Shown here: positions 1-63,500 of the stretch, piece by piece
Layout: every line of letters begins with the position of its first letter
How positions within the stretch are numbered: position 1 is the first letter of the stretch
NCBI GenBank assembly: GCA_965199495.1
Contig: CBDASK010000003.1
Coordinates: 2,304,001-2,368,000 of the forward strand
Reading direction: 5' to 3'
Source of the DNA: Abditibacterium sp.
Lineage (GTDB): Bacteria > Armatimonadota > Abditibacteriia > Abditibacteriales > Abditibacteriaceae
Length of the DNA stretch: 64,000 nt
Notes under the pieces: model-generated
What the model was told of the DNA's origin: nothing
Seen by the model: only the letters and a program-made list of their open reading frames with translations
Database searches by the model: none
Made by a program: the position numbers and the translations under genes

Positions 1-70
1 AGAACGAGGGCGCCGCCGTGGCTGTATGCGCGAGTAGGGCGAGGGCGAGCGGATAAAACAGGGACTTCAT
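1..70 (-). CDS. 5' end of a secreted protein running off the window edge
   Basis: Minus-strand ATG at 70 reads MKSLFYPLALALLAHTATAAPSF, a Sec signal peptide; divergent from mraZ. Confidence 0.6.
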   Translation of the reverse strand, partial: MKSLFYPLALALLAHTATAAPSF

Positions 71-369
71 TGTTGTTTTGGACGAATGGGGACGCGAGAA
101 GTCGCGTTTTGGGCGCATTGGGACGGGGATTCCCAAAAGTAGGAACAGTTCAAGCTGTCAGGAATTTCATTGCCTGAAATTCCTCCTCTGCTCTCTGTCA
201 CTATTCGACCTCACGCTTTCACTGAAGTAACGATTACTAATATCTCAAATAATTCTTCTAAAAACTCCGCTTATTTTCTTGCGTTGCTGATAAGTTTAAA
301 CCTTAAACTTACATTTTTTGTCGAAAATAGATTTGTCACGTCGCTAAATTTGCGATAGAATACCCGCAG

Positions 370-415
370 AGGACGTAAAAGGACGCGAAATGACACAAAA
401 GGACGGATTTAGGAA
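370..415 (+). promoter_or_regulatory. 10-bp-phased direct repeats, candidate MraZ operator
   Basis: AGGAC at 370, 380 and 400, ATGAC at 390, AGGAA at 411, upstream of mraZ. Confidence 0.55.
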
Positions 416-537
416 TCGCCTTGGAAAGCCAGATTTTCTAACCCGCCGATTAACTCGTTTTGCTTGCTTATACCGAACCTCCAAAAATCTGCTGTTAATG
501 CAAGGCGAGAGTTTACCCGCCATGTTCGAGAACATCC

Positions 538-1203
538 ATGCCCCGCGCTTCTGCCCAAAGCGAGGAAACCTTCTCTTCCGCGCCGGAAATCGGTGTGCCC
601 GTGATGACGGGCACGCATTTTCATGCGCTTGACGACAAGGGGCGTGTCATCGTGCCCGCCAAACTGCGTCCCGGTCTGACCGAACGTTTTTGGATGATGC
701 TCGATGAGAACGACAACATAGCGATGTATGATCATCAGACTGGACGCGACGTTCTCGAATTTTGCGAACAGCAGATGGCTCAAAACCCCGGCGATGATGT
801 GATCGCATCCGCGATCAAACGCATTACCGGAGCCGCCGAGTTAATAGTGATGGAAGGCGATTCGTGGAGAGTTCAGGTTCCTGAAATTCTTCGCATTTAC
901 GCCAGCATCGAGAAAGAAGTCGTAACAATTGGTGTGCTCAACAAAGCCGAAATGTGGAGCCGGGAAATGTGGTTGGAGAATCAGAAAAATTCGGATTCTC
1001 CAGAAGTGCGTAAGGCGCAGGCCAAGATGCTGCGCGCGGCGGCGAGTCAAATCAGAAAGACGAGCCTACCGCAAATCGAAGAAACGACAGAAGTCAAGGA
1101 AGTGGCAGCCAATGGAACAACAGGAACTTCAGGGCAAAATTCACCCGCCAGCGATGGTGGAGGAAGTTCTCGAATTCTTAAATTGTCGCAACTTGGCCGA
1201 TGA
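538..1203 (+). CDS. mraZ: Division/cell-wall cluster transcriptional repressor MraZ (start may be 604) with C-terminal extension
   Basis: GTHFHALDDKGRVIVPAKLR and IGVLNKAEMWS motifs; first gene before rsmH. Confidence 0.88.
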   Translation: MPRASAQSEETFSSAPEIGVPVMTGTHFHALDDKGRVIVPAKLRPGLTERFWMMLDENDNIAMYDHQTGRDVLEFCEQQMAQNPGDDVIASAIKRITGAAELIVMEGDSWRVQVPEILRIYASIEKEVVTIGVLNKAEMWSREMWLENQKNSDSPEVRKAQAKMLRAAASQIRKTSLPQIEETTEVKEVAANGTTGTSGQNSPASDGGGSSRILKLSQLGR

Positions 1204-2454: not shown

Positions 2455-3015
2455 ATGCCCGCAACCGCCACACGCCACCGCGAGAACACCGCCGAAACTC
2501 GCAATGGCTTCAACCCTCACGGCCCGTCTTACTCCACCCATGAAGTCCCCACTGACTCCGTGGAATTTTCGCGCGTCTCAACAGCGCCCACCGAGACCGT
2601 CGAAGACCATGTCGAGTGGAAAGAGGTCGCGCCCCTCGTTGACCGTTTTACCAACACTGTGCCCGAAGCCGAGCGTCGGCGCCGCCGTGGCTTGCGCAAG
2701 CGCCATCGCATTTTTGTGATGTCGGGCGTGTTCTGGGTCGGCGTCTTGTTTGGCATCGAGTTGGTCGGATTGGTATTTATTTACTCGCTCGATTTGACGG
2801 CGGTGCGCGCGGCGGCGACTTTGGACAAAGATATTCAGAAAACCTCGCTCGACATCGCCCTTGCGCAAAACCAATTGGCAGCCAGCAACAGCCCCGCCAA
2901 ATTAGACGGTTGGGCCGGGCAGTTGGGCTATCATAAGGCGCAACTCAACGACATGGACGACGTGACCAGTTCGGCGCCCCTACCAGCAGCCACGCCCAAA
3001 GATTCCACGCAATAA
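2455..3015 (+). CDS. FtsL-like bitopic cell division protein
   Basis: Between rsmH and ftsI; basic stretch, one TM helix, coiled coil ending AGQLGY; ATG 2455 preceded by GAGG. Confidence 0.65.
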   Translation: MPATATRHRENTAETRNGFNPHGPSYSTHEVPTDSVEFSRVSTAPTETVEDHVEWKEVAPLVDRFTNTVPEAERRRRRGLRKRHRIFVMSGVFWVGVLFGIELVGLVFIYSLDLTAVRAAATLDKDIQKTSLDIALAQNQLAASNSPAKLDGWAGQLGYHKAQLNDMDDVTSSAPLPAATPKDSTQ

Positions 3016-5004: not shown

Positions 5005-5278
5005 ATTCTTGTGGCTTAAATTCTGTCTCCCAGCGAACGCCTTTTGCTCGAATTTCGACGATTGGAATTGATTTGCCCCAAGTTCGTGGCTGTGTTGTCT
5101 CGTCACATTGCCCAATAACATACTTGCGTCCGCAAGTTCGCCATGACACACAAGGCGCTCGATTCGGCGTTTCATTCCACGGAATTTGAGCGCGACGCCG
5201 AATTTCTGCCAAAGCGAGTTCAAACGTTTCGTATTCTCCCGCTATTTCTGCGTGTAAATGATCTTCAATCGTAAACAT
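5003..5278 (-). CDS. Hypothetical protein (91 aa)
   Basis: ATG-start ORF 5 bp downstream of the RCC1 gene, ending at the terminator. Confidence 0.65.
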   Translation of the reverse strand: MFTIEDHLHAEIAGEYETFELALAEIRRRAQIPWNETPNRAPCVSWRTCGRKYVIGQCDETTQPRTWGKSIPIVEIRAKGVRWETEFKPQE

Positions 5279-5283: not shown

Positions 5284-6390
5284 TTAATTAACTTCGATTT
5301 CAACTGGCGCTTTCACGACTTCATCCGTTCCGCCGCCCAACTGCAACGTCGAATTGTTGCCCCAACCCCAAATTTTGTCGCCAGCAATCGCCAAACTGTG
5401 CCAGTTGCCCGCGCTGATTTGCGTGGCGCCACTTAAATTTTTCACTACGACCGGCGTTTTGCGCGTCTCGGTTGAATCGTCGCCCAATTGCGCCGTTCCG
5501 TTGTTGCCCCACGCCCAAACCGTTCCATCTGCCAAAAGCGCGAGGCAATGCCAGTTGCCCGCCGCGATTTGCGTCGCGCCGCTCAACTCAACTTTTTGCG
5601 GCGCGCTGACAATTTGCGGCCCTTCGCCGACCGCGCTCGTCATGTTGCCGCCCCAAGCCCAAACGCTGCCATCGGCGCGCAAAGCCACGCTGTGACTCCA
5701 GCCCGCCGCCACGGTTTTGGCATCGCTAAAACCAGCAATCGGCGACGGGATGGAACTGTCTTCGAGCGTGCCTTGGCCCAATTGGCCGTCGCTGTTTTTG
5801 CCCCAACTCCACACTTTTCCATCGCTCGTCACGGCCAGCGCGTGATACGCGCCCGCCGCCAATGTCGTCACGCTTTTTAAGTTCGGGATCGCGCGCGGTT
5901 TCGCGTTATCGTCGGTTGTTCCATCGCCCAGTTGGCCGTAATTGTTTTCGCCCCAACTCCACACGCCGCCATCTTTGCGCCGCGCCAGCGCGAATCCGGC
6001 GCCCGCCGCCATATCGGTAATGTCGGATAAACCGACGATTTTCGCCGGTTTATCGCGATTTTGGCGCGTGCCATCGCCCAATTGGCCGTTAGAATTATCG
6101 CCCCAACTCCATAGAGCGCCACTTTTATCGAGCGCCAGCGAGTAGCCACGGCCACTGGCGACGGCTTTGATATTCGCTAAACCGGCGATAACGGCGGGCG
6201 AATTATGTTTTTCGGTGCGCGGCCCGATGGCGCTTTTGACGCCGTTGCCCCAACCCCAGACGTTGCCATTCGCGTCAACGGCGAGGGATTGCAAATCGCC
6301 GCCAGCCAGCACTCCGGCGGCGTGGCTGCATGGCATCAGATAAAATAGAAAGGTCAAAGAAAACGCGCAAATGCGCAACAGTTGAAGCAT
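5284..6390 (-). CDS. Secreted RCC1-repeat beta-propeller protein
   Basis: About seven repeats of AG..HSLAL..DG.VW.WG.N..GQLGDG; signal peptide ending SHA. Confidence 0.9.
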   Translation of the reverse strand: MLQLLRICAFSLTFLFYLMPCSHAAGVLAGGDLQSLAVDANGNVWGWGNGVKSAIGPRTEKHNSPAVIAGLANIKAVASGRGYSLALDKSGALWSWGDNSNGQLGDGTRQNRDKPAKIVGLSDITDMAAGAGFALARRKDGGVWSWGENNYGQLGDGTTDDNAKPRAIPNLKSVTTLAAGAYHALAVTSDGKVWSWGKNSDGQLGQGTLEDSSIPSPIAGFSDAKTVAAGWSHSVALRADGSVWAWGGNMTSAVGEGPQIVSAPQKVELSGATQIAAGNWHCLALLADGTVWAWGNNGTAQLGDDSTETRKTPVVVKNLSGATQISAGNWHSLAIAGDKIWGWGNNSTLQLGGGTDEVVKAPVEIEVN

Positions 6391-6441
6391 GAGTTGGTCG
6401 AATTAGACCGCGCGAACTCAGTGTCGTTGCCCACCAAAATT

Positions 6442-7884
6442 ATGGCTTTCCCCTCGGATTCCAATGCCAAACTCGCCCATCTGTTGCGGCGCGCCGGGTT
6501 TGGCGCGAGTCCGGCGCAGTGGGCGAATTATCAAAAAATGGGTTTGCAAAACTCCACGCAAATTTTGCTGAATCCCGAAAAAACGCCCGACCATTTGGAC
6601 GCGCTTTTAGAGGAAATCGGCGGCGATTACGTGGATGCCAACGACGTGAATAGCGTGCGCCAATGGTGGATTTATCGCATGGTTCACACACAGCGTCCGC
6701 TCGAAGAGAAGATGACGCTGTTCTGGCATAACCACTTCGCGACGGCGATTTATAAGGTGGATAACGCGAACTGGATGTGGGCGCAAAACCAAACCTTTCG
6801 GCGCTATGGCATGAGCAGTTTTCGCACATTGTTACAACAAGTCGCGCGCGATCCGGCGATGTTGGTCTGGCTCGATGGCCGCGATAATCACGTCGGCAAA
6901 CCCAACGAAAATTTCGCGCGCGAGGTCATGGAATTGTTCACGCTCGGCGTGGGCGGCGGCTACACCGAAAAGGACGTGCAAGAAGCCGCGCGCAGTTTTA
7001 CCGGTTGGCAGGGCGGCGATGGGCCGGGCGGTTTCATCTACAATCCCGGCGCGCACGACGATGGCGAAAAAACCGTGTTGGGCCAAACCGGGAACTGGCA
7101 CGCCGATGATGTCTGCGATATTTTGGCGCGTCACCCCTCAACGGCGCGTTTTTTGACGACTAAACTCTTTCGTTTTTTCGTCGGCACCGAACCTTCTCCA
7201 TCCGACATCGCTAAATTATCGAAGGTTTATCTGGATAACCAATCCGATATTCGCGCCGTCTTGGAAGCGATATTGACTTCGGATATTTTTTACTCGGACG
7301 CGGCAAGGTTTGCCAAAATCAAAAGCCCGACCGAGTTTTGCGTGATGACGATTCGCGCCTACGACGCGCCCCTATCCGCCGCGCGCGATTTGAACCGCGC
7401 TCTGGCGAATATGGGCCAAGACTTGTTCAATCCGCCCAACGTCAAAGGCTGGAGCGAGGGCCGCGATTGGATCAATACGCGCACGCTATTAGCGCGCGTC
7501 AATTTCGCTTCGGGTTTGACGGACGAAATGAAAAATCGCGTTTCGCTCGAAAGCCGTCTGCGCGCGATGGCCTCCGATAATAACGCGCCGAAAATTCCAA
7601 CTTTAGGCGGCGAGAACAATTCGATGGCGATGATGGGCGCGCCCGCCATGAACGCCATGAACGCCATGAATGCAGCCACGGCGCCCGCAAGCGGCGCTTT
7701 GACCGCCGAATTCGCCGTTGATACGCTGTGGCAAGGCTTGATGCGCGGCATGCCATTAGCGTCGGCGCGCCGCGCCGAATTGGTGGCGTTTTGCAAAAAA
7801 GACGACGGCAAAGACGACACCGCCAACCGCTTGCCGGGCTTGTTCAATTTAGTCGTCTCGGCGCCGGAGTATCAGTTGTGCTGA
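6442..7884 (+). CDS. DUF1800 family protein
   Basis: HLLRRAGFG, EKMTLFWHNHF, PNENFAREVMELFTLG, PPNVKGW, PEYQL motifs. Confidence 0.88.
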   Translation: MAFPSDSNAKLAHLLRRAGFGASPAQWANYQKMGLQNSTQILLNPEKTPDHLDALLEEIGGDYVDANDVNSVRQWWIYRMVHTQRPLEEKMTLFWHNHFATAIYKVDNANWMWAQNQTFRRYGMSSFRTLLQQVARDPAMLVWLDGRDNHVGKPNENFAREVMELFTLGVGGGYTEKDVQEAARSFTGWQGGDGPGGFIYNPGAHDDGEKTVLGQTGNWHADDVCDILARHPSTARFLTTKLFRFFVGTEPSPSDIAKLSKVYLDNQSDIRAVLEAILTSDIFYSDAARFAKIKSPTEFCVMTIRAYDAPLSAARDLNRALANMGQDLFNPPNVKGWSEGRDWINTRTLLARVNFASGLTDEMKNRVSLESRLRAMASDNNAPKIPTLGGENNSMAMMGAPAMNAMNAMNAATAPASGALTAEFAVDTLWQGLMRGMPLASARRAELVAFCKKDDGKDDTANRLPGLFNLVVSAPEYQLC

Positions 7885-7913
7885 GCGTTTTTCCTCAAAT
7901 CCATCCGAAAATT

Positions 7914-9188
7914 ATGTCTCACACTCGACGCGAATTCATCTCTAACGGCCTTGGTTTTGTGGCGCTCGGTTTTACCGTGCCCACCATGCTGATGCAAGCC
8001 TCGCAAGCGATTGCCGCCGAAAAAACGGTCGGAGCGCGTGCGGGCCAACGCGGCAAAATTTTGGTAGTCATCGAAATGTCTGGCGGCAACGATGGCCTCA
8101 ATACCGTCGCGCCGATTAACGATCCGCTCTATGCCAAACTGCGCCCGACCATCGGCATGAAAGCCGGTGACGCGGTGAAAATTGATAAAGGTCTGGCGCT
8201 GCATCCGAGCATGGGCGCGCTGGGCAAATTGTATGAAAAAGGCCAACTCGCCGTCGTGACGGGCGTGGGTTATCCCAATCCGAATCGCTCGCATTTTCAG
8301 AGCATGGACATCTGGCAGAGTGGCGACCCAACTTTGGATGCGCGCGAGCGCAGCGGTTGGTTGGCGCGCTACTTCGACGAAGACGGCCATTTTCAGGGCG
8401 ATCCACTCGCCGGAATTTCGCTGGGCGATTCGTTGCCGCTCGCGTTGTGGAGCAAAACCAGCGCGGCTTCGGTCGTCGGTGGTAACGCGAATGAGTTCGG
8501 TTTCGCCGCGCGCGGCAATGCGCGCGAACAACAGTTGGCGACGCTCAAAACTTTATACGATCAAAGCGGCATGGAAAACGGGACGGTCGCGGCGGGCGCG
8601 TCCGATTTCATTCGCAACGTCGGCGCCGGCATTTACGGCAGTAGCGACGCCATTAAAATCGCGCTCAAAAACTACGACGATAAAGCCGCCAAAACCGCTA
8701 ATTATCCGCGCGATAACAGTCTGGCGAATGGCCTGAAAACCGTCGCCAAACTCATTACCGGCGATTTGGGCACGCGGGTTTACTATCTTTCGATGGGCGG
8801 ATTCGACACGCACGCCAACCAGCCGGGTAGCCACGCCTACCTGCTCGGCCAGTTGGCCGACGCCGTGGCTGCATTCAACGCCGACCTCGAATTGCAGGGA
8901 CGCGGCGAAGATGTCGTGGTGATGACATTCTCCGAATTCGGTCGGCGCGCGCAGGAAAATGGCAGCGCGGGCACCGATCACGGCGCCGCCAGCGTGATGT
9001 TTGCGACCGGAGCCTCAGTCAAAGGCGGCGTTTACGGCGATTATCCGAGTCTGGAAGATTTGGACGACGGCGACCTCAAACATCACACCGATTTTCGTAG
9101 CGTTTATTCGACCGTGCTGGGCAATTGGCTCCAAGTTTCGGCGCCGAAAGTTTTGGGCGGCGAGTTTCCGAGCTTGAAATTTGTTTGA
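7914..9188 (+). CDS. DUF1501 family protein with Tat signal
   Basis: TRREF; GGNDGLN, NRSHF, GGFDTH, SEFGRR, GTDHG motifs; follows DUF1800. Confidence 0.88.
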   Translation: MSHTRREFISNGLGFVALGFTVPTMLMQASQAIAAEKTVGARAGQRGKILVVIEMSGGNDGLNTVAPINDPLYAKLRPTIGMKAGDAVKIDKGLALHPSMGALGKLYEKGQLAVVTGVGYPNPNRSHFQSMDIWQSGDPTLDARERSGWLARYFDEDGHFQGDPLAGISLGDSLPLALWSKTSAASVVGGNANEFGFAARGNAREQQLATLKTLYDQSGMENGTVAAGASDFIRNVGAGIYGSSDAIKIALKNYDDKAAKTANYPRDNSLANGLKTVAKLITGDLGTRVYYLSMGGFDTHANQPGSHAYLLGQLADAVAAFNADLELQGRGEDVVVMTFSEFGRRAQENGSAGTDHGAASVMFATGASVKGGVYGDYPSLEDLDDGDLKHHTDFRSVYSTVLGNWLQVSAPKVLGGEFPSLKFV

Positions 9189-9793: not shown

Positions 9794-11305
9794 ATGCCTT
9801 TACTTTCCGAACTTTTGGTTTCGCTGCCGGGCGCTCGCATCGAGGGCGACGCCGATTTAAATATCAAAGCCGTCAACTACGATTCGCGCGAAGTCGAGTC
9901 GGGTTCGGCGTTTGTGTGCATTCGCGGCGTCGCCAACGATGGGCACGATTTCGCCCAATCCGCCGTCGAGCGCGGCGCCGTGGCTGTTGTCGCCGAGTCC
10001 GAATCCGCTGTCGCCGATTTGCCCGATCATATCACACGCGTTTTCGTCGAAGATACGCGTTTGGCGCTGGCTTTGATGGCCGACGAATTTTATGGTCATC
10101 CTTCGCGCGAGATGATGTTGGTCGGCATCACCGGCACCAACGGCAAAACGACCGTCGCGCATTTGGTCGCCGATCTGCTCCGCGAGGCCGGTTATAAATC
10201 GGTCGGTATTATCGGGACTTTGGGCGCGGCGACCGAAAAAACGTATTATGATACCGGCAGAACGACGCCGGAAAGTTTGGATTTGCAACGGTTGCTGGCC
10301 GACTTTTTGGACGGCGGAAGCGAGGCCGTGGTGATGGAAGTTTCGAGTCATGCGCTGGCGCAACAACGCGTGGCGGGTTGTGCTTTCGATGCGGGCATTT
10401 TCACCAATCTGACGCAAGACCATCTCGATTTTCACGGCGATATGGAAGAGTATTTCGCCGCCAAAACGCGCTTGTTTACCGATGTGGCGCGCGCTTCGGA
10501 AGCGCACAAAAGTTTCGGCGCCGTCTTTCCGACCGACGACCGTTATGGCGTGCGCTTGACGCAGTTGGATAGCGATACGCCGTTTATCACTTATGGCATT
10601 GAGGCCGACGCTCACGTCAAGGCGGCGGCGGTGATGCTGCGGCCAACTGGCACGAGTTTCGTGGCGCGCACGTCGAGCGGCGATATTCCGTTTGACGTTC
10701 GGTTGACGGGACGTTTCAACGTGCAGAATATGTTGGCGGCAATTGCGTTTGGCATTTTGAAAGAGATTCCAATCGAGAAAATCCAATCCGCGATGCAGCG
10801 CGCCAATGCGCCCGAAGGCCGCATGGAAGTCATTGACGAAGGCCAAGATTTTTATGTCGCAGTGGATTACGCGCATACACCCGACGGCCTGAAAAATGTG
10901 TTGGCGACGGTGAAAGAGTTCACCAAAGGCCGCGTGATTTGCGTGTTCGGTTGCGGCGGCGACCGCGACCGCACCAAGCGCCCGCAGATGGGAGCCATCG
11001 CGGCCAGTTTGGCCGATTTGGTTATTGTGACCAGCGACAACCCGCGCACCGAAGACCCCAATCGCATTTTAGACGATATTTTGGCGGGCACAAGCGGCGC
11101 CAGTGCGGGCGTCGAAAGCGAAGTGGATCGGCGCAAAGCCATCGAACGCGCTCTGGAATTGGCGCGCGCTGGCGATTTCTTGGTTGTCGCGGGCAAAGGT
11201 CACGAGACGTATCAAATTTTCAAAGATCGCACGATTCACTTCGACGACCGCGAAGTCGTGCGCGAATGGCTCGAAGGCGCGCACGAAAGCGGAGGCAAAG
11301 GTTAA
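9794..11305 (+). CDS. murE: UDP-MurNAc-dipeptide:meso-DAP ligase MurE
   Basis: GITGTNGKTT, MEVSSH, DHLDFH, DYAHTPD, DNPR (DAP specificity), GKGHE. Confidence 0.95.
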   Translation: MPLLSELLVSLPGARIEGDADLNIKAVNYDSREVESGSAFVCIRGVANDGHDFAQSAVERGAVAVVAESESAVADLPDHITRVFVEDTRLALALMADEFYGHPSREMMLVGITGTNGKTTVAHLVADLLREAGYKSVGIIGTLGAATEKTYYDTGRTTPESLDLQRLLADFLDGGSEAVVMEVSSHALAQQRVAGCAFDAGIFTNLTQDHLDFHGDMEEYFAAKTRLFTDVARASEAHKSFGAVFPTDDRYGVRLTQLDSDTPFITYGIEADAHVKAAAVMLRPTGTSFVARTSSGDIPFDVRLTGRFNVQNMLAAIAFGILKEIPIEKIQSAMQRANAPEGRMEVIDEGQDFYVAVDYAHTPDGLKNVLATVKEFTKGRVICVFGCGGDRDRTKRPQMGAIAASLADLVIVTSDNPRTEDPNRILDDILAGTSGASAGVESEVDRRKAIERALELARAGDFLVVAGKGHETYQIFKDRTIHFDDREVVREWLEGAHESGGKG

Positions 11306-41277: not shown

Positions 41278-41817
41278 TTACGCCCGAATCTCACGCGCCA
41301 AACCCGCCACACATTCGCGCAATAACGCGCTGATTTCCTCATCGGCGAGCAACGCAGCCACGTCCACCCGATTCGATCCCAATGGCACTTCCACCGACGC
41401 CGTTTCGCTGACGCGTGCCATCAACGTTTTCAAAATTTCGAGCAACGACGCGTTGGCAAACGAACCACGATTGGCGACGCTGATTATCGCGACCGGTTTG
41501 TCCCACAACTCGCCGCCGCTCACCAGCCAGTCGAGCAAATTCTTGAAACTGCCCGGCAAACCATGAACATATTCGGGCGTGCAAATGATTAAACCTTCGG
41601 CGGCAACCACGCGGGCGCGCAAATCGGCGACGCTCGTGGGCGCGTTTTCGCCATCGTCGTCGGGATTGAAATGCGGCAACGCGCCCATATTATCATAAAT
41701 TTCAATCGAAATATCGTCGGGCGTCAGCGCCGTGGCGGCTTGCAAGAGCGCCGAATTGGAACTGGCCACGCGCAGACTGCCCGAAATCGCCAGCAACTTA
41801 AAGGAAGAATCGTTCAT
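41278..41817 (-). CDS. NADPH-dependent FMN reductase
   Basis: ISGSLR..SSN, TPEYVHGLPGSFKNLLDW, DKPV. Confidence 0.9.
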   Translation of the reverse strand: MNDSSFKLLAISGSLRVASSNSALLQAATALTPDDISIEIYDNMGALPHFNPDDDGENAPTSVADLRARVVAAEGLIICTPEYVHGLPGSFKNLLDWLVSGGELWDKPVAIISVANRGSFANASLLEILKTLMARVSETASVEVPLGSNRVDVAALLADEEISALLRECVAGLAREIRA

Positions 41818-52892: not shown

Positions 52893-53957
52893 TTACGCGT
52901 CCGGCGTCATACCAGCCACGGCGCCCACGCTTGAGGCGAAAACGGTTCCGGGCGCGCCCTGCATCGGCATCAAACCGCTGATTTCCATCAGACAGCGCAC
53001 CATGACGTTTTGGCCCAACGGCACTTTGTAAGCGTTATATTGCAGCGGTTTGGAACCCGCAAAAGCGGCGCGCGCGGCCTCGCGGAACAGCGATTCCGAC
53101 GGCGCTTTTCCGGCCAACATTTGCTCGGCTTCGTCGGCGCGCCACGGTTTGGGCGCGACGCTGCCCAGCGCGATGCGCACGGTTTTCATTTTCTTGCCGT
53201 CCATTTCGAGCGCGACGGCGCACGAAGCGCGCGCGTAAGCGTAACTGGAACGGTCGCGGATTTTGAGATAATGTGATTTACCCGCGAAATTGGGTAAATC
53301 AATAAACGTGATGATTTCGCCCGGCAGCAAAACCGTATCATCCTGCGGCGTGTCGCCGGGCAGACGATGCAAATCGGCCATCGCAATTGAACGCGCGCCG
53401 CTCGGCCCGTTAGTTTGCACGACGGCATCGAGCGCCGTCAGAGGCACGGCCATATCGCCATGATACAAAGTGATGCACGCGGGCGAGCCGCCCAGAATCG
53501 CGTGATCGGCGTTAATTCCGGTCAAAGCCGAACAGCCCGTGCCCGGCTCGCGTTTGTTACACGGCATCGCGGTATCGCGATAATACGAGCAACGCGTTTT
53601 CTGTAAGAGATTGCCGCCCATCGAAGCCATGTTGCGGATTTGCGCCGACGCGCCCGCTAAAATCGCCTCGGAAACGCCGGGATAACGCCGCATGATTTCG
53701 GGATGATAAGCCGCGTTGGTATTGGAAACGCCCGCGCCGATTCGCAAACCGCCCGCGTGCGATTCAATTTTGTCGGACAAAATCGGGCTGAGATCGAGCA
53801 GAACGTCGGGACGCAAAACGTTCTCTTTCATCAGGTCAATTTGCGTGGTGCCGCCCGCGATAAATTGCGGCGCAACCTCGCTCGACGAAGAATGTGTGGC
53901 AGTGTTTTGAACGGGCGTCGCGGTCGCCGTGGCTGCTTGGTATTGGAAGGGTTTCAT
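52893..53957 (-). CDS. FAD-binding subunit with 4Fe-4S Cys motif (PaoB/YagS-like)
   Basis: IAGGTTQIDLMK, GASAQIRNMA, RCSYY...CNKREPGTGC, KIRDRSSYAY. Confidence 0.92.
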   Translation of the reverse strand: MKPFQYQAATATATPVQNTATHSSSSEVAPQFIAGGTTQIDLMKENVLRPDVLLDLSPILSDKIESHAGGLRIGAGVSNTNAAYHPEIMRRYPGVSEAILAGASAQIRNMASMGGNLLQKTRCSYYRDTAMPCNKREPGTGCSALTGINADHAILGGSPACITLYHGDMAVPLTALDAVVQTNGPSGARSIAMADLHRLPGDTPQDDTVLLPGEIITFIDLPNFAGKSHYLKIRDRSSYAYARASCAVALEMDGKKMKTVRIALGSVAPKPWRADEAEQMLAGKAPSESLFREAARAAFAGSKPLQYNAYKVPLGQNVMVRCLMEISGLMPMQGAPGTVFASSVGAVAGMTPDA

Positions 53958-54031: not shown

Positions 54032-55051
54032 TTACGCGTCGCGCGCGGCCTTGACCGCCGCCAGAATGTTGGGATACGCCGCGCAACGGCACAAGTTTCC
54101 GCTCATATGTTCGCGGATTTCGTCGTCGGAACCGGCGCGTTTGCTCTTGATCAAAGCCGTCGCCGACATGATCTGGCCGGACGTGCAATAGCCACATTGG
54201 AACGCATCGTTTTCGATGAACGCCAACTGCATTGGATGCAATTCGCCGTTTTGGGCCAAGCCTTCAATCGTAGTGATCTCACGATTTTGCGCGCGCACCG
54301 CCAGCGTCAAACACGACAAATGCGCCTCGCCATCCACATGAACGGTGCAGGCGCCGCATTGTCCGTGATCGCAGCCTTTTTTACTTCCCGTGAGGCCCAT
54401 ATATTCGCGCAAAGCATCCAACAGCGCCACGCGCGGTTCGAGTTGCAGAGTCTGCGCGCGGCCATTGACGCGCAAAGTCACGGGAATCGTATCGGTTTTA
54501 ACGTAGGAGTTGGCGGCGCTCAGGTTGGGCACGGCGCCAATCGGCGGCGTGTTGGCCGGGCCGGGCCGACCGTTGGCGGCGTGGCTGCTGTTGGCGGCGA
54601 GGGCCAAAACCGCGCTCGCTGCCAAAGTCGCGGCTAAAAACGAGCGGCGCGACAAGCCTTTTTTCTCGTCGTTACGCAACGCTTCCAAAGCCGCGATGAT
54701 TTCGCCGGGCGCGGCCTCTTCGCCGCTCGCTGATTTCCATTGCCAGGCGATGTTGCCGGTTTCGTCGAGGACGAAAACCGCGCGCTCGCCGCTCACGCCG
54801 AACTGTGCAGCCACGTCGCCCGCACTATCAAAGGCGTGCCATTCGTCGCCGCCCGCGTCCACGATTTGCGCGTCAAACTGCGCGGCCAAAGTCGCGTAAA
54901 GTTCGCTCGACGCGGCGCGCGCCGGATTCCATTCGTCGGGCGCGAACGCCACGATGAGCGGACGCCCGCGCTTTTGCGCGGCGCGCGTGCCGTCCGGCAA
55001 AGTGAAATCGGGTGCGGTTAGTTGCGATTCGAGGTTGTGAGGGGAAGACAT
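54032..55051 (-). CDS. 2Fe-2S subunit (PaoA/YagT-like) fused to an N-terminal Cys-less redoxin-like domain
   Basis: APDFTLPD...RAVFVLDETG; SRRSFL; GCDHGQCGACTV, QCGYCT, NLCRC. Confidence 0.88.
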   Translation of the reverse strand: MSSPHNLESQLTAPDFTLPDGTRAAQKRGRPLIVAFAPDEWNPARAASSELYATLAAQFDAQIVDAGGDEWHAFDSAGDVAAQFGVSGERAVFVLDETGNIAWQWKSASGEEAAPGEIIAALEALRNDEKKGLSRRSFLAATLAASAVLALAANSSHAANGRPGPANTPPIGAVPNLSAANSYVKTDTIPVTLRVNGRAQTLQLEPRVALLDALREYMGLTGSKKGCDHGQCGACTVHVDGEAHLSCLTLAVRAQNREITTIEGLAQNGELHPMQLAFIENDAFQCGYCTSGQIMSATALIKSKRAGSDDEIREHMSGNLCRCAAYPNILAAVKAARDA

Positions 55052-55282: not shown

Positions 55283-56185
55283 TTAATTCTGCGCGTCCGC
55301 TCCGATTGCGTTCAATTTCGGCAGCATTTCACCGGGAATTTGCAAGTCCGCCGCCACGACGTTTTCGCGCAGATGCTCGACTGACGAAGTGCCGGGAATC
55401 AGCAAAATGTTGGGCGAGCGTTGCAGCAGCCACGCCAGCGCGACTTGCAGCGGCGAGGCTTGCAAAGCGTCGGCGACTTCTTGTAGCGCCGACGATTGCA
55501 ACGGCGAAAATCCGCCGAGGGGGAAGAACGGCACGTAAGCGAGGCCCGCACCAGCCAGTTCTTCAAGCAACGCGTCATCCTCGCGGTGCGCGAGGTTGTA
55601 TTGGTTTTGCACGCACACGATTTCGGCGTAATTGCGGGCCTGCGCGACCTGTTTCGAGGTGACGTTGCTCAGTCCGATGTGGCGAATCAAACCCTGCTTT
55701 TGCAACTCGACCAAAACGCCCAATGGTTCTTCGAGCGAGCCTTCGGTGGGGCCATGCCCGGCGCCGCCGCCCATCATGCGCAAATTGACGACATCGAGAG
55801 CCTCGACGCCCAAGTTGTTCAAGTTGCTGTGAATGGCACCAGTCAATTCATCGGGCGTCATCGCCGAATTCCACGAGCCGTCGTCGCCGCGCAACGCGCC
55901 GACTTTGGTGACGATTGTCAAATCATCGGGATACGGATGCAGCGCCTTTTTTATCAGTTGATTTGTAACGTATGGCCCGTAAAAATCGCTGGTATCAATG
56001 TGATTGATGCCGGTGGCTACAACTTCGCGCAACACGGCGAGCGCGGCGTCTTCATCGCGCGGTGGCCCCCACACACCTTTGCCCGCGAGTTGCATCGCGC
56101 CATAGCCCATGCGATTGAGCGTGATTTGCGTGTTCGGCAGCGTGAATTCGCCGCCCAGATTGTTCGAGTTAATGAAATTGTTCAT
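55283..56185 (-). CDS. Aldo/keto reductase (YdbC-like)
   Basis: GYGAMQL, DTSDFYG, IGLSNV, IPGTSS..HL.EN. Confidence 0.9.
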   Translation of the reverse strand: MNNFINSNNLGGEFTLPNTQITLNRMGYGAMQLAGKGVWGPPRDEDAALAVLREVVATGINHIDTSDFYGPYVTNQLIKKALHPYPDDLTIVTKVGALRGDDGSWNSAMTPDELTGAIHSNLNNLGVEALDVVNLRMMGGGAGHGPTEGSLEEPLGVLVELQKQGLIRHIGLSNVTSKQVAQARNYAEIVCVQNQYNLAHREDDALLEELAGAGLAYVPFFPLGGFSPLQSSALQEVADALQASPLQVALAWLLQRSPNILLIPGTSSVEHLRENVVAADLQIPGEMLPKLNAIGADAQN

Positions 56186-56221: not shown

Positions 56222-57289
56222 TCAAAGCAAAAACTGACCGCCCGCGAATTCGGCGAGTTCCGGGCCAAACAGCGCGCCCGGCGTGAAAGCGCCCGGTTTG
56301 CCTTCGCCGCGCGACAAACGTAGCGCGACTTCGGCCAGCGCGCGATTGGTAAAGTCTCCGGCGTCGCCCAGTTGCAGCCAGCCTTCGCGCGTTTCGCCCC
56401 CTTCCCAACTGACGCGCGCGTGCGCCCACGAGAATTGCTGGCCTTTGCCCTCGAATTGTCCCGGCTTCATTTCGACGGCGGCCAGGCGGCGCGTGGCGAA
56501 ATCGCTGATGGCTTTGAAGCGCATCAGCGCCATAATCGCGGGCAAAACCGCGCCCATCACCGGCGAGTTGGGCACCATGCTCGACGCCGCCACGACGTTG
56601 CCCGCGCCACTGGCGCGGCGCGCGGCTTCGAGTTCGCCCGAACTCCAACCGGCGGTTGTGGCGCGCGATCCGTCGGGCACAGTCAGCGTTTTCACGCTGC
56701 TCACGGGACGCGTGCGCACCAATTGGCCGCGCGAATAACGCCGCCCGCCCTCGATAATGCCGCCGACAATTGTGCTTGCCAACGCTTGTCCCATCGCGCC
56801 CGCTTCGACATTGACAAACGGCAAAACATCAACGCGGACTTTACTCGCCGGAGGCTGGCCCTCGCACAGTTTCAGCACCAAACTCTCGGTCGCCAGCGCG
56901 CCAAATCCGGCGCCCGGAACCAGAGTTTGTCCCGCCGCAACCGCTTCGTCGTGCATCGAGAACAGTTTTAAAAACGACGCGAGTTCATTGGAAATATCCA
57001 AATAATGCGTGCCCGCCGGACACGCTTTGGCGATGGGAAACGCCGATTGAGTAAACGGCCCCACCGTATTAACGACGACAGCGGGCTTGCCGTCCGCAAT
57101 CGCGCGCGCCATCGCCTCGACCGAATCCGCAATAACAACGCGCGCCTCGCCGCCGCATTCGTCGGCGACTTTATCCAAACGCGCCGCGTCGCGCCCGACC
57201 AAAACGAGCGCGCATTGCGCCTGCGCCAGAAGTGCAGCCACGGCGCGCCCGCTCCGGCCCGTTGCGCCTAAAATCCAAATTTCGTTCAT
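56222..57289 (-). CDS. Saccharopine dehydrogenase-like oxidoreductase
   Basis: ILGATGRSG, NTVGPF, YLDISNE, GAFTP. Confidence 0.82.
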   Translation of the reverse strand: MNEIWILGATGRSGRAVAALLAQAQCALVLVGRDAARLDKVADECGGEARVVIADSVEAMARAIADGKPAVVVNTVGPFTQSAFPIAKACPAGTHYLDISNELASFLKLFSMHDEAVAAGQTLVPGAGFGALATESLVLKLCEGQPPASKVRVDVLPFVNVEAGAMGQALASTIVGGIIEGGRRYSRGQLVRTRPVSSVKTLTVPDGSRATTAGWSSGELEAARRASGAGNVVAASSMVPNSPVMGAVLPAIMALMRFKAISDFATRRLAAVEMKPGQFEGKGQQFSWAHARVSWEGGETREGWLQLGDAGDFTNRALAEVALRLSRGEGKPGAFTPGALFGPELAEFAGGQFLL

Positions 57290-58325: not shown

Positions 58326-58970
58326 ATGAAAAAAAGTGAGCTGCCCGGCGAGCGCGTTGGCAAGCGCGGCGATGAACTGCGCGCGCATATTTTGTGGGCG
58401 GCCAAGGACGTATTTTTGGACGAGGGTTTCGAGCGCGCTTCGATGGACGCCATCGCCGCGCGCGCCGAGACTTCCAAACGCACGCTTTACGCGCACTTCG
58501 AGAACAAAGAGAATTTATATTTGGCGGTCGTCGAGTTGGTGCGCGCGCTTTTGATGCAACGCTTGCAACATCCCGGCGATTATTCGGATGATCCGGCGCA
58601 AGCGCTTGTGATGTTTTGCGGGCGCTTTCTGGAAATCATACTTTACGCGCCCAGCATTCGCATGAGCCGCATGAACATCGCGCAGGCCGAGCGTTTTCCT
58701 CAAGGCGCCGCGAGTTACCACGACGCCGGTTTTTCCGTCGCGCACGAACGCTTGAGCGATTATTTGGCGATGAAATTCGCTTTATCGGAACAGGCCAGCT
58801 TAGACGCGGCGCAAGAGCTGTTGGGCCGCGTATTGCATCCGCGTTTTGTGCGCGCACTGTTTGGCGTGGACGAACTCTCGTCGCAGTTGGGCGAAGATTC
58901 CATCCGCGACGACTTGGATTTGGAACCCATCCGCCGCGCCGTGGCTGATGTGTTGGCCTCGCTGAATTAG
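58326..58970 (+). CDS. TetR/AcrR family regulator
   Basis: GFERASMDAIAARAETSKRTLYAHFENKENL; AGGAG RBS. Confidence 0.92.
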   Translation: MKKSELPGERVGKRGDELRAHILWAAKDVFLDEGFERASMDAIAARAETSKRTLYAHFENKENLYLAVVELVRALLMQRLQHPGDYSDDPAQALVMFCGRFLEIILYAPSIRMSRMNIAQAERFPQGAASYHDAGFSVAHERLSDYLAMKFALSEQASLDAAQELLGRVLHPRFVRALFGVDELSSQLGEDSIRDDLDLEPIRRAVADVLASLN

Positions 58971-58971
58971 A

Positions 58972-59796
58972 TTAGCCCTGCGCGGCGTTGGAAACGTCGG
59001 CCCACGCTTCCCATGTCGCGATGCGCCCGGCGTAGGCGGCGCGCGCGGCGGGCAAGTTCTGGTCGCCGAGCATCATGCGCAGCGGCGGTTTTTCGGCATC
59101 CACGATCTGCAAAATAGCGTCGGGCGTCGCCTGCGGGTTGCCGCGTTTCTGGTTTTTCAAGCCCGCCATCAGGTTCTGGCGCAACTCGGCGTAGACTTCC
59201 ATCCCCTCGGATTGCTTGAGCGACGCGTCGCTGCCAAACTCGGTGGCGTAGGCGCCGGGTTCGATGATCGTGACGTGAATGCCGAACGGTTCGACTTCCT
59301 GAGCCAAGCTCTCGTGGAGCGCCTCAATCGCCCATTTGGAAGCGCAGTAAAGCCCAATGAGCGGCACCGCGATGATGCCCAGAGTGCTGGAAACGCCCAG
59401 AATATGGCCGCTGCCCTGCGCGCGTAAGATGGGCAAAACCGCCTGAATCACGCGTAACGTGCCGAAAAAATTGGCGTCGAACTCGGCTTGCACGTCGCTT
59501 CCCTTGACTTCCTCGACCGTGCCGACCAACGAGTAACCTGCGTTGTTAATCACGACATCCAATCTGCCGAAATGTTCGTGCGCCTGGGCGACGGCGCTTT
59601 GGACTTGCTCGGCATTGGTCACATCGAGCGCGAGCGGCAAAGCGGCGTCGCCAAACTGTGCGGCGAAGTCAGCCACGTCGGCGACATTGCGCGCGGTCAC
59701 CGCGACTTTATCGCCGCGCTTCAGTGCGGCCTGCGCCCAGATGCGGCCCATGCCACGCGAGGCGCCAGTAATAAACCAGATTTTTGGGTTGTTCAT
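58972..59796 (-). CDS. Classical SDR oxidoreductase
   Basis: TGASRGMG, NNAG, YCASK. Confidence 0.92.
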   Translation of the reverse strand: MNNPKIWFITGASRGMGRIWAQAALKRGDKVAVTARNVADVADFAAQFGDAALPLALDVTNAEQVQSAVAQAHEHFGRLDVVINNAGYSLVGTVEEVKGSDVQAEFDANFFGTLRVIQAVLPILRAQGSGHILGVSSTLGIIAVPLIGLYCASKWAIEALHESLAQEVEPFGIHVTIIEPGAYATEFGSDASLKQSEGMEVYAELRQNLMAGLKNQKRGNPQATPDAILQIVDAEKPPLRMMLGDQNLPAARAAYAGRIATWEAWADVSNAAQG

Positions 59797-59862
59797 AATG
59801 TTATCCTTTGATGCGTGATCTCCAGTGATTTCAATGACACGCGCCGCTCAGTGTAAGCGTCC

Positions 59863-59903
59863 ATCTAAACGCTGTCAAGATTAAATTTGAACACTGTTAA
59901 GAT
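59863..59903. promoter_or_regulatory. Tandem candidate TetR operators
   Basis: Imperfect palindromes ATCTAAACGCTGTCAAGAT and ATTTGAACACTGTTAAGAT, 22 bp apart. Confidence 0.65.
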
Positions 59904-59912
59904 TTGACTAAA

Positions 59913-60554
59913 ATGGCTGTAAAAAAAGAGAATTATCATCACGGCGATTTGCGCGCGGCGCTTATTCGCGCGGCGGACGAGATTATCAGCGAGAGCGGCA
60001 TTGAGGGTTTTTCGCTGCGCGCGGCGGCGGCGCGGGCGGGCGTCTCACCGGGCGCTCCGGCGCATCATTTCGGGAGCGCCAAAGGTTTGCTCACCGAAGT
60101 CGCGCTTTTGGGGTTCGAGCGCGTGGACGGTTACCTCGAAAAAGTCGAACCCTGCGGCGACGTGGCTGCCGATATGCGCGCGGTCAGTCTGGCGTTCGTG
60201 CGTTTCGCCCTCGATAATCCCGGCCATTTTCGGCTGATGTTTCGCAACGATTTAATCAATCGCGACGACCCGCGTTACGCCGAAATTAGCCACAAACCGG
60301 GCGCGCGTTTGAGCGCGGCAGTGGCCGCTTACCACGGCAAAACTGAGTTAGATTTAGAGCGATTCGAGGACGCCGCCGATCTTTTCGGCGCGCTTTCCAC
60401 GATTCACGGATTGGCGCACATGGTTTTGGCGGAAAAGGCGACAGCTTTTTTCGCGCACGCCGACGCGCACGAATTCGCCCAGCGCGAACTGCCGCGTGTG
60501 CTGGAACGAATGTATCCCGCCGCGCCCGGTAAAAATAAAGATGGATTCTCTTAA
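59913..60554 (+). CDS. TetR family regulator (WHG-like C-terminus)
   Basis: YHHGDLRAALI, FSLRAAAARAGVSPGAPAHHF, IHGLA. Confidence 0.9.
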   Translation: MAVKKENYHHGDLRAALIRAADEIISESGIEGFSLRAAAARAGVSPGAPAHHFGSAKGLLTEVALLGFERVDGYLEKVEPCGDVAADMRAVSLAFVRFALDNPGHFRLMFRNDLINRDDPRYAEISHKPGARLSAAVAAYHGKTELDLERFEDAADLFGALSTIHGLAHMVLAEKATAFFAHADAHEFAQRELPRVLERMYPAAPGKNKDGFS

Positions 60555-63500
60555 AACTGCTCCAATCGTTTACCCCGCACCGATGCCAACGATTCGACCA
60601 AAACTTCGATTGTGCGCAGCAATTGCGCGTCGTTCATCGCGCGCGTGTTGATCGCCAAACCTTCGAGTTTGCGCAGCGCCAACGTCTGCAAAGCGCGCTT
60701 GTCTTTTTCGCCCAGAATTTTATAAGCATATTTTAAATCGCTATCTTCAAACGTATCGCCGGGCTTGAGTTTAATCAATACTTCTTCGGGGCTTTTAGTG
60801 ATACTTCGCAGATAGGCTTTCAACATCCAAACGCGCACTTTTAACACGCGAATCAGATTAAACGCGGGCGCCGGAAGCGCGCCGAAACGGTCGCGCAGTT
60901 CCTCGCGGATTGATTCGACATCTTCGAGTTCGCGCACCATCGTCATTTCGCGATAAAGGCCCAAACGCTCGACGGCATCGGCAACGTAATCTTCGGGCAA
61001 ATACGCCGGAATCGGCAAGTCCACTTCGGGCAACTCCTCGACACGAGCCACGCGCTTGGTTTGGCCGCGCGTTTTGGCGACGGCTTCGGCCAAAAACTGC
61101 GAATACAAATCCATGCCGACCGCCGCAATCGAGCCGCTCTGTTTGATGCCCAGCACATCGCCCGCGCCGCGAATTTCGAGGTCGCGCATCGCGATGCGAA
61201 AACCGGCGCCCAAATCGGTGTTTTCCTGCAAAGCCGCCAAACGTTCTTCGGCGTCTTTGGGCATTTTGCCGCGATTGGAATGCAAGAAATACGCATACGC
61301 CTGACGCGGACTGCGCCCTACTCTTCCGCGCAATTGATACATTTGCGACAACCCCAAACGGTCGGCGTGATCGCAGATAATCGTGTTGGCGTTGGGCAGG
61401 TCAATGCCATTTTCGATAATCGTCGTCGCCAACAAAATATCGGTGCGATGCTGCATAAAGTCGAGCATCACTTGTTCTAATGCTTCGTCGCCCATCTGTC
61501 CGTGGCCCATGCCGATGCGCGCGTGCGGCACCAGTTTTTGCAACTGATCGGCGACGTGGCTGATGCTGTCCACGCGATTGTGGATGTAATAAATCTGGCC
61601 TTCGCGCTCCAGTTCGCGCTCGATGGCCGCGCGCACAACCGCGTCTTTTTGCGGCATCACATACGTGCGAATCGGCAAACGGCCACGCGGCGGATCGGTA
61701 ATCAGCGAAATTCCGCGTAATCCGCCCAATGCCATTTGCAGCGTGCGCGGAATCGGCGTCGCGCTCATCGTCAGAATATCGACTTCGGCGCGCAATTCTT
61801 TCAAACGTTCTTTTTGCATCACGCCGAAACGTTGTTCTTCGTCCACGATAACTAATCCCAAATCTTTGAACTCGACATCTTTTTGAATCAACCGATGTGT
61901 TCCGATAACGATGTCAACGCCACCACTTTTTAAGTTCTCCAAAGTTCGTTTAATTTCGGTCGCGGTCTTAAATCTGGAAACGACTTCGATACGCGTGGGA
62001 TACGCGTTCATGCGTTCGCTAAAAGTCTGAAAATGTTGTTGCGCCAAAACGGTCGTAGGAACTAAAACCGCGACCTGTTTACCTTCCTGCACCGCTTTGA
62101 AAGCGGCGCGCACGGCGATTTCGGTCTTGCCGAAACCGACATCGCCGCAGACCAATCTGTCCATCGGCTTGCCAGTTTCCATGTCCGATTTGGTGTCTTT
62201 AATCGCCTGCAATTGCGAGGGCGTTTCCTCGAATGGAAACGCCGATTCCATTTCGCGTTGCCACATCGTGTCCGGCCCCAGCGGCGCTTTTTCGGCTTTC
62301 TCGCGGCGCGCATACAAAACCGCCAAATCCTGCGCGGCCTGCATCGCTTCCTCGCGGGCGCGGGTTTTGGCTTTCTCCCAACTGCCGCCTTTGAGCGGCG
62401 TTAGCGAAGGCACCGACGCATCCGAACCCATATATTTCTGCACGCGATCTAACTGGCCAACCGGCACATACAAACGGTCTTGACCGTCGTATTCCAATGC
62501 CAGATATTCGTTGACCGCGCCACCGATTTCGCGTTGCACGACGCCGCCATATTGCGCGATGCCGTGATTGACGTGAACGACATAATCGCCTTCGCGCAGG
62601 TCGGCGATTTTGGACAATGGCGAAGTTTCGCTGCCGAATTTCTCCGCGCCGCCCTTCTTTTTGCGACGGCTCCGTTTGGTCGCGCGCGGCTGAAACGTCT
62701 GCCAACCGAACATTTCGCTGTCGCACAAAACGCACAATTCGCCCCAGTTAAAACCATTTGTCAATCGCTGCGGCATCACCAAAATTTGGCCGTTTTCGGC
62801 TTTGTTAATCTCGTCAATTAAGTGGACGTGGCTGATGTTTTGGTCGGCCAAAATCTCGCGCACGCGGCGCGCGTGCGAAGTCGCGCACACGATGATTTTG
62901 CCCTCGTGCTGACGAACTTTAATCCAATCGCAAAGCGGCGCGATTTGCCCGTTGAACGCGGGCGGCGCGCCGATTTCGAGCGAAACATCGGCGCCGTCGT
63001 CGCTGCCCGCGCGCGCCTCGAAACGCGTAAATTTGGCGCTGGCCGTTTGCAATTCGTCCCAACTGGCGACCGACGGCGGCACTTCCAAAATATCATCTTG
63101 ATGTAACGCCGTGTTTTCATCGGCCAAGCGCGAAACCTGCGACAGAGCGCGCTCCGGCTCGGCCCAAATTATCAAGGCATCTGGGGGCAAATGATCGAAG
63201 AGCGTCGAATGTTGCGGCTCGATCAAGCCGCGGTAACGCTCGACGCCGGGGAAATATCTGCCGCTATCTAATAATTCGATTTCGCGGTCGAAGCGGCGCT
63301 TCAAAACGCGAATATCTTCGGGAAACGCTTTCAATCGCTCGATTTCTTCGTCCAAACGAATCAACAATTGCGCGGCGATTTCGCGTCCTTTGGCTGCCGA
63401 TAAATATAATTCGCGCGGCGGAGTTAAGCGAATCGATTTCAATTTCTCGGTCGAGCGCTGCGTTTCGACATCGAAAGCGCGCAGTTCGTCAATTTCGTCG

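Follow-up and report, generated by a model that had tools for sequence, protein, structure and literature searches.

The question raised by this locus is what a short, non-palindromic word, repeated on both strands about once every 1.5 kb, does for its host and how it came to be there. The stretch analyzed here, termed the window, comprises 64 kb of the chromosome of an Abditibacterium sp. (G000:C3:2304001-2368000); the G000 assembly has a size of 4.81 Mb in three contigs, with a chromosome of 4.72 Mb. The word, the octamer CAGCCACG, had been picked out from the letters of the window alone in an earlier reading (the original prediction), which took it for an uptake sequence or for the binding site of an abundant DNA-binding protein. 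It is hyper-abundant along the whole chromosome and in two closely related genomes. By analogy it is tentatively read here as a new and young counterpart, in a third lineage, of the DNA uptake sequence (DUS) of the Neisseriaceae and the uptake signal sequence (USS) of the Pasteurellaceae.

Abundance and anatomy of the word

The window contains 43 exact copies of CAGCCACG, 23 on the plus and 20 on the minus strand. Dinucleotide-preserving shuffles of the window gave a mean of 2.45 copies (standard deviation 1.57, maximum 8), and none of 100 shuffles reached 43. The chromosome carries 3,083 copies, 1,558 on the plus and 1,525 on the minus strand, or one per 1.53 kb. A third-order Markov model predicts 118 and 115 copies per strand, about 234 in total, and the excess is about 13-fold. 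Under the same model the commonest 11-mer, CAGCCACGGCG, occurs 526 and 525 times on the two strands against 5.9 expected, and the 12-mer GCAGCCACGGCG 346 and 344 times against 1.9 (690 in total against 3.9). The hyper-abundance of CAGCCACG is confirmed. All 42 coordinates listed in the original prediction are correct; the copy at 43677 (+) had been overlooked, and the true count of the window is 43. Its rough expectation of about 3 copies is close to the shuffle mean, the extension to CAGCCACG-N-C-G claimed for 32 of 42 copies is seen in 33 of 43, and the two inverted pairs that it named (28321/28333 and 50201/50212) both exist. In the literature searched, CAGCCACG itself was found only in primers of unrelated papers.

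The word as originally given is enriched but slightly off, since the invariant core is the heptamer AGCCACG and the N-C-G flank is characteristic of only two of the three species that carry it. Counted in 12-mer context, the 21 single substitutions in the seven core positions amount to 94 copies, where about 78 are expected; there is thus no enrichment of imperfect copies. Upstream of the core, G000 prefers C at -1 (68%), G at -2 (50%) and A at -3 (43%); downstream it shuns A at +1 (7%) and prefers C at +2 (77%) and G at +3 (69%). The total number of copies of NAGCCACG is 4,533. Beyond about 13 nt no conserved bases were found around the copies in G000.

Occurrence among genomes

The 8-mer is abundant in three of the 31 genomes compared, namely G000 (1,561 and 1,530 copies on the two strands), G004 (1,730 and 1,773) and G011 (1,328 and 1,348), in each case with about one copy per 1.4-1.7 kb. 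The other 28 genomes, nine of the same genus among them, are at the level of a reversed-word control. Nucleotide identity to G000 is about 86% for G011, about 82% for G004 and about 70% for the other congeners. The three motif genomes are mutual closest relatives, and the motif therefore marks one small clade of Abditibacterium-like soil bacteria. Homologues with 78-80% identity to the Ffh encoded in the window carry the names Abditibacterium sp. or Abditibacteriota bacterium, which places G000 in this phylum. A relative contig (L011), matched through its PurH at 80% identity, showed no enrichment, the word occurring once in 21.5 kb. Five motif-less congeners (G002, G006, G009, G010 and G012) were sampled over 100 kb each; no 8-mer exceeded 19 copies or an excess of about 7-fold, so these species have no substitute word.

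Placement in genes and along the chromosome

Open reading frames (ORFs) were taken from a crude set made for this analysis, longest first and with at least 80 amino acids; its 3,985 ORFs cover 90% of the chromosome. ORFs contain 2,926 (95%) of the 3,083 copies; another 146 fall between ORFs, and 11 span an ORF boundary. Each of the six frames is occupied, and two are favored: 839 copies are read as xCA-GCC-ACG (mostly Ala-Ala-Thr) and 1,195, on the opposite strand, as x-GTG-GCT-G (Val-Ala-x). Within ORFs CAGCCACG occurs 1,311 times in sense and 1,618 times in antisense orientation, whereas 20 synonymous-codon shuffles gave 120 and 171; at the 11-mer level the figures are 976 and 1,087 against 31 and 35. 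Intergenic DNA (455 kb, 48% GC) holds 145 copies where 10.8 are expected from its own composition, a 13-fold excess equal to that within genes. The Ala codons GCT and GCA are rare (11% and 7% of Ala codons, respectively), and copies of the word account for 6.8% of all GCT codons. Codon use, peptide content and composition were considered as causes and ruled out by the dinucleotide and synonymous-codon shuffles.

The density round the chromosome varies between 95 and 145 copies per 200 kb. The cumulative strand skew has a range of 73, against a mean of 88 for random sign sequences, and replichore polarity is therefore absent; the GC skew of G000 itself is weak. Two statements of the original prediction are upheld by these data, namely that copies lie in different frames and that they use uncommon Ala codons. 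The enrichment persists against synonymous-codon shuffles and, extending over all six frames and the whole chromosome, is confined neither to one frame nor to the window.

The spacing of copies is more regular than Poisson, with a coefficient of variation of 0.93. Intervals of 30-500 bp number 555 against about 800 expected, with an excess at 1-3 kb and a deficit beyond 3 kb. The exception to this evenness is formed by close inverted pairs, intervals of 10-20 bp being found 56 times against 20 expected. The 86 close inverted pairs of G000 lie mostly inside ORFs and without T runs. Of these pairs, 21 are situated at most 100 bp from the 3' end of an ORF, against 15% of random positions, and the pairs are not concentrated at gene ends; a T run accompanies only 3 of 65 convergent pairs. 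Both observations speak against a role as terminator in G000, which was considered and set aside.

The small contigs of G000 are at background level, with 2 copies against 1.1 expected in C1 (24.7 kb) and 6 against 1.8 in C2 (64.6 kb). ORFs in the lowest octile of GC content at third codon positions (GC3) carry 0.28 copies per kb, while those of classes 2-7 have 0.67-0.78. The longest copy-free gaps are grouped at 1.12-1.26 Mb, a low-GC stretch with restriction-modification genes. Recently acquired DNA, namely small contigs, low-GC3 genes and islands, is poor in the word.

The region G000:C3:1.12-1.26 Mb has a GC content of 0.48-0.54 and encodes HsdM (L151) and a 1,432-amino-acid Eco57I-like methyltransferase (L141) beside an ORF of 1,981 amino acids. 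It is probably an acquired defence island, to judge from the low GC content, the longest motif gaps and the HsdM and Eco57I-like genes. An array of clustered regularly interspaced short palindromic repeats (CRISPR) with 131 repeats and a periodicity of 62-68 bp (G000:C3:2766483-2775006) lies within one of the largest motif-free gaps. In G004, the small contigs C1, C4 and C5 (L086, L089 and L090) hold about 107 copies of one repeat unit containing AAGCCGGAATAGCACCCTAGG, and are probably CRISPR arrays on short contigs.

Origin and turnover of sites

Sites were compared by alignment of the window with orthologous stretches of its relatives, in which 16 sites remained unaligned for G011, 14 for G004 and 30 for G006. 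At 20 of 27 aligned sites the word is also present in G011, where the baseline for any 8-mer is 0.39 (P = 2e-4); for G004 the figure is 10 of 29, not significantly above its baseline of 0.31. The outgroup G006 has the word at none of 13 orthologous sites. In the reverse direction, G000 has 49 of 62 aligned G011 sites (baseline 0.38, P = 7e-11) and 21 of 47 G004 sites (baseline 0.29, P = 0.016). Density is conserved and position is not, every lineage gaining sites of its own. Among the 26 G004 sites absent from G000, 19 align free of gaps, which identifies substitutions and not insertions. The alignments show copies that were written in place by substitution and then maintained and turned over. 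Under sites that differ between genomes, 34-52% of codons had changed their amino acid, against 20-32% under random differing 8-mers, the numbers being small (n = 20-59 codons).

Flank dialects and hairpin pairs

The word takes the form aGCAGCCACGbCG in G000 and G011, where it lies mostly within genes; in G004 the form is GACACCAGCCACGTCCta, often in intergenic hairpin pairs. The N-C-G flank is present at 2,180 of 3,091 copies in G000 and 1,838 of 2,676 in G011 (69-70%), against 739 of 3,503 (21%) in G004. For G004, the 88 sites in an unbiased sample of 120 kb gave the logo G-A-C-A-C-CAGCCACG-T-C-C-t-A-c-g. The 15-mer ACACCAGCCACGTYC has 729 and 806 copies (1,535) in G004, 1 and 2 (3) in G000, and none in G011, G012 and G006. 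At shared orthologous sites the flank is TCC in G004 and GCG or CCG in G000. This shift of dialect at orthologous sites indicates co-evolution with a reader, the flank preference of which would have diverged, the sites following it.

Of the 88 G004 sites, 38 are intergenic; non-coding DNA makes up 13% of the sequence. Nineteen convergent pairs (43% of the 88 sites) form hairpins of -35 to -62 kcal/mol, and a run of at least four T is found near 9 of the 19. The sequence GTAG adjoins the loop in the palindromic pairs. The hairpin arms extend past the word with bases that differ by locus, and the hairpins are therefore not copies of one mobile element. Uptake sequences are described as concentrated in terminators in the cited part of a recent preprint (10.1101/2025.10.24.684340), and the G004 pairs with T runs would match this concentration.

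A Dam-like D12 methyltransferase (L148, G000:C3:3737447-3738337) is encoded in G000 and G011 (85% identity) and was not found in G004, G012, G006 and G009. Its distribution equals the split of the N-C-G flank dialect, which may be a coincidence.

A proposed reader in the uptake machinery

G000 encodes ComEC (862 amino acids), DprA, a ComEA-like HHH_3 protein, at least six secretins, PilC, a prepilin peptidase (PilD) and four consecutive pilin-like genes (G000:C3:867620-872591). With these competence genes, DNA uptake in G000 is plausible. A family of prepilin-type paralogues with a near-identical N-terminus, which we take to be of the DUF1559 type, is found at about 40 further G000 loci and in the window at 23131-23808 (-).

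On the uptake reading, the AGCCACG word with its lineage-specific flanks would be a self tag of a species group, read by a sequence-specific factor. A surface or periplasmic part of the type IV pilus or competence apparatus would bind word-bearing DNA, and such DNA would be taken up and recombined more often. Alleles that gain the word would for that reason be over-transmitted, and this molecular drive would write the word into genes and spacers until about one copy per 1.5 kb was reached. Four features, namely the equal use of both strands, the regular spacing, the lack of the word in foreign DNA, and its substitutional origin despite the codon habit and with some amino-acid changes, suggest a reader that works across the whole genome and favors density over position. 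Most of the about 3,000 sites arose within about 17% nucleotide divergence, for which biased transmission would be an easier explanation than selection at each site. To our knowledge, such drive has one established mechanism, that of DUS and USS, in which uptake is biased and the incoming DNA then recombines. The reader may be inferred to belong to the uptake machinery, the bias acting at uptake.

Neisseria genomes carry 1,500-3,400 copies of DUS, according to the cited passage of Frye et al. 2013 (PMC3630211). Like the Neisseriaceae DUS, as far as it is described in the sources cited here, the Abditibacterium word is short and non-palindromic with thousands of copies per genome (2,676-3,503 in the clade), lies on both strands within and between genes, has flank dialects that follow the core-genome phylogeny and forms inverted, terminator-like pairs (here in G004). 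Unlike the DUS, it has no CTG core, belongs to another phylum, comes with no detected ComP homologue and is confined to three species rather than a family. In addition, its copies in G000 and G011 are almost wholly intragenic rather than in terminators. The USS of the Pasteurellaceae are evenly spaced, as this word is. Both have a core with weaker flanks and frame preferences for tolerated peptides, in the cited parts of the USS literature (PMC7811141, PMC1939737, PMC12616744). In contrast to the USS, the present word shows no enrichment of one-mismatch copies, and its sequence and lineage are different.

Several observations weigh against this reading. ComEC and DprA are also encoded in the motif-less congeners G012 and G006, and a fast-evolving pilin-like protein of 618 amino acids (57% identity in G011, 47% in G004) is genus-wide; accordingly, none of the competence components follows the motif in its distribution. 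The competence pilins that had been suggested as a place to look are represented by pilin-like genes, none of which was shown to follow the distribution of the word. ComP_DUS (PF16732) gave no match in 13 genomes and none in any control genome either, and this search is uninformative for lack of a positive control. The high share of G000 copies in ORFs (95%) and the scarcity of T runs at convergent pairs (3 of 65) count on the same side. So does the count of one-mismatch variants (94 against about 78 expected), Haemophilus genomes having many imperfect USS. Judged by its distribution among the genomes, the word is a clade-specific young invention and not a family-wide system with dialects. Literature searches on transformation in Abditibacterium and on uptake sequences in Armatimonad/Abditibacteri returned nothing, and a swap of the DNA-end nuclease in the clade, described below, offers a different candidate reader. 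The idea of an uptake sequence or binding site is thus sustained in part: density, symmetry, frames, substitutional origin, depletion in foreign DNA, spacing, dialects and, in one species, hairpin pairs fit uptake words and the tool-kit genes are present, but no receptor was found and the competence genes occur in motif-less congeners as well.

Alternative explanations

A word of the type of HIP1 (highly iterated palindrome 1) is the first alternative and is regarded as unlikely; it would depend on an orphan DNA methyltransferase, on a sequence-specific repair bias turning near-cognate into cognate sites, or on both. In the cited parts of the literature, HIP1 (GCGATCGC) of cyanobacteria is an octamer over-represented 15- to 300-fold (PMC5861425) and, like the present word, is conserved at orthologous sites and patchy among lineages, with a debated reader (PMC4390886, PMC5861425). 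A link of hyper-abundant words to orphan methyltransferases is also described there (PMC4390886), and G000 encodes many enzymes with asymmetric sites. Its set of about 12 methyltransferase and restriction enzymes comprises two Type ISP-like, one MmeI-like and two Eco57I-like enzymes, two of HSDR_N_2 with methyltransferase, HsdM, two N4/N6 and two Dam-like methyltransferases. An all-or-nothing core would fit repair or conversion. However, HIP1 as described is palindromic with two orphan methyltransferase sites, whereas this word is asymmetric and no tested methyltransferase tracks it. Six of the about 12 candidates were tested, and none has a distribution that coincides with the three motif genomes: L147 and L140 are patchy, L152 is found in G000 only, L139 in G000, G011 and G012, L142 also in G012 and G006, and L148 in G000 and G011 only. 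Nor is any single one-mismatch neighbor selectively drained. HIP1 too has lately been connected with transformation and gene transfer, in the passages cited (10.1101/2024.09.10.611283, PMC13756078), and this explanation therefore merges in part with the uptake reading.

Improbable as well is a polarity-free analogue of Chi, or an innate-immunity self-tag, which a helicase-nuclease or defence nuclease would recognize at DNA ends. Recognition would switch degradation to repair, and word-rich chromosomes would be protected where foreign DNA is not. Chi, the FtsK-orienting polar sequences (KOPS) and the architecture-imparting sequences (AIMS) are, like the present word, octamers that mark self DNA and are rare in foreign DNA; plasmids and islands are poor in the present word. 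Known Chi words are G/T-rich, as is the reverse complement of CAGCCACG. An AddB-like PD-(D/E)XK protein of about 1,100 amino acids is encoded in 10 of 10 motif-less congeners (for example at G006:C42:58196-61567, L159) and in none of the three motif genomes. A nuclease-helicase of 1,421 amino acids (G000:C3:4111368-4115630), with an N-terminal PD-(D/E)XK domain and a C-terminal superfamily 1B (SF1B) helicase in a Dna2-like build, is confined to the three motif genomes and missing from 10 congeners; its nearest solved relatives are DNA2 and Upf1. Topoisomerase IB, encoded beside the nuclease-helicase, was rejected as a candidate, being genus-wide and unlinked to the nuclease-helicase in G004.

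The phyletic match of the nuclease-helicase represents a single evolutionary event, and the correlation is weak evidence for that reason. The G011 gene is a remnant, with about 2.2 kb including the nuclease domain deleted and the rest frameshifted, yet G011 has 2,676 copies of the word and a turnover symmetrical with that of G000 (20/27 and 49/62). This argues against the nuclease-helicase as reader, unless the decay is very recent or an assembly artefact. Seven window sites are missing in G011 but none of them is present in G004, so that no loss in G011 can be demonstrated. In contrast to Chi, KOPS and AIMS, the word is not co-oriented with replication and shows no skew switch at origin or terminus, its enrichment is far higher and its specificity longer. 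RecC was found in 0 of 13 genomes, the Escherichia coli control being positive. The enrichment of Chi is far below the 13-fold to 180-fold of this word, and an 18-nt dialect and hairpin pairs are unlike Chi.

Less probable again is that the word is not an uptake signal but a new self-mark, either a polarity-free Chi analogue or an innate-immunity tag, born with the swap of an AddB-type nuclease for the Dna2-like nuclease-helicase. If this were true, the birth of the mark, its spread to about 3,000 copies and its split into dialects would be traceable across three species.

Still less probable is a binding site for an abundant chromosomal protein that serves nucleoid organization, condensin loading or repair scanning, with selection acting on the density of sites and not on their position. 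The even density across the chromosome and across GC3 classes, the lack of polarity and the conservation of density but not position (G004 shares 10 of 29 window sites) are in keeping with it. We know of no nucleoid protein, however, with an invariant site of 7 nt, a specificity of up to 18 nt and thousands of sites in coding DNA against codon habits. Selection at each site would moreover be minute, yet most of the about 3,000 sites arose within about 17% divergence, which suggests a bias in transmission.

A fragment of a mobile or repetitive element, such as repetitive extragenic palindromic (REP) sequences or bacterial interspersed mosaic elements (BIME) mobilized by a REP-associated tyrosine transposase (RAYT), or a miniature inverted-repeat transposable element (MITE), is highly improbable, as is a by-product of composition or peptide repeats: the long G004 form often lies in intergenic palindromic pairs with GTAG beside the loop, superficially like REP and BIME, and Y1 transposase genes are present, but these are equally frequent in motif-less genomes, most copies are single, intragenic (2,926 of 3,083 in ORFs, in all frames), substitution-born (19 of 26 G004 sites missing in G000 align gap-free) and without a conserved body (nothing past about 13 nt in G000), the arm extensions are locus-specific, a RAYT/REP origin is ruled out by the Y1 distribution and the gap-free substitutions, and a compositional or peptide by-product by the shuffles.

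Copies and other features of the window

The copies of CAGCCACG in the window are given here with strand and with their state in the aligned relatives; all have the N-C-G flank except where stated. Kept in both G011 and G004 are the copies at 2987..2994 (+, no N-C-G), 33352..33359 (+) and 37119..37126 (-), the last absent from G006, together with several in named genes. Among the latter, the copies in murE (9979..9986, -) and murF (12411..12418, -, no N-C-G) are absent from G006, G012 and G003, and a second copy in murF (12599..12606, +), one in purH (40800..40807, +) and one in mfd (61555..61562, -) are absent from G006; the second murF copy and the purH copy have the flank TCC in G004. The copies at 17..24 (-), where G004 is unaligned, and 34708..34715 (-) are kept in G011. 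Also kept in G011, and absent from G004, are those at 6321..6328 (-), 7673..7680 (+), 30093..30100 (+) and 48798..48805 (+, no N-C-G). Five copies kept in G011 have one mismatch in G004, namely 8864..8871 (-), 15462..15469 (-), 26893..26900 (-), the copy in ffh at 25371..25378 (+) and that at 49686..49693 (+); the last two are absent from G006. The copies at 41355..41362 (+, no N-C-G) and 54580..54587 (-) are kept in G004.

Absent from G011 are the copies at 5085..5092 (-, no N-C-G), with three mismatches, and 16517..16524 (-, no N-C-G). Only the 7-nt core is found in G011 at 28719..28726 (+, no N-C-G) and at a second copy in mfd (62827..62834, -, no N-C-G), the latter being absent from G004 and G006. 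The first inverted pair consists of a left arm at 28321..28328 (+), absent from G011 by one mismatch, and a right arm at 28333..28340 (-), kept in G011. In the second, the left arm at 50201..50208 (+, no N-C-G) and the right arm at 50212..50219 (-) are both absent from G011, the right arm by one mismatch. All four arms are absent from G004 and G006. Absent from G004 are further the copies at 51155..51162 (+), 52913..52920 (+), 53928..53935 (-) and 54808..54815 (+). Those at 20749..20756 (-) and 22688..22695 (+) lie in regions unaligned in the relatives. The remaining copies are found at 43677..43684 (+), the one overlooked earlier, 45316..45323 (+), 46265..46272 (+), 55427..55434 (+, no N-C-G), 57235..57242 (+), 58940..58947 (-), 59670..59677 (+) and 60161..60168 (-).

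The dcw cluster in the window ends after mraY. Between its ftsI and murE genes, at 5284-9188, it holds three ORFs without an NCBIfam match. Directly after mraY lies a near-perfect palindrome of about 135 bp (13866-14005), followed by a separate terminator-like hairpin. Six other chromosomal loci carry the outer 23 nt of the palindrome, again in palindromic form, and pieces of the palindrome match non-syntenic places in G004.

Biological significance

The literature on uptake sequences, in the parts cited here, concerns the Neisseriaceae and the Pasteurellaceae, two proteobacterial families (PMC7811141, PMC1939737, PMC12616744). A third independent case, in the Abditibacteriota, would show that self-tagging of DNA evolves repeatedly. 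The youth of the present word, which is limited to three species of 82-86% nucleotide identity with wordless congeners beside them, makes its origin, the rate at which it is written and the shift of its dialect readable from alignments. The uptake systems of Neisseria and Haemophilus are old, and such a reading is impossible there. For a phylum poor in genetic tools the word would also offer a practical handle, in that it may be added, for example as aGCAGCCACGGCG, to transforming DNA.

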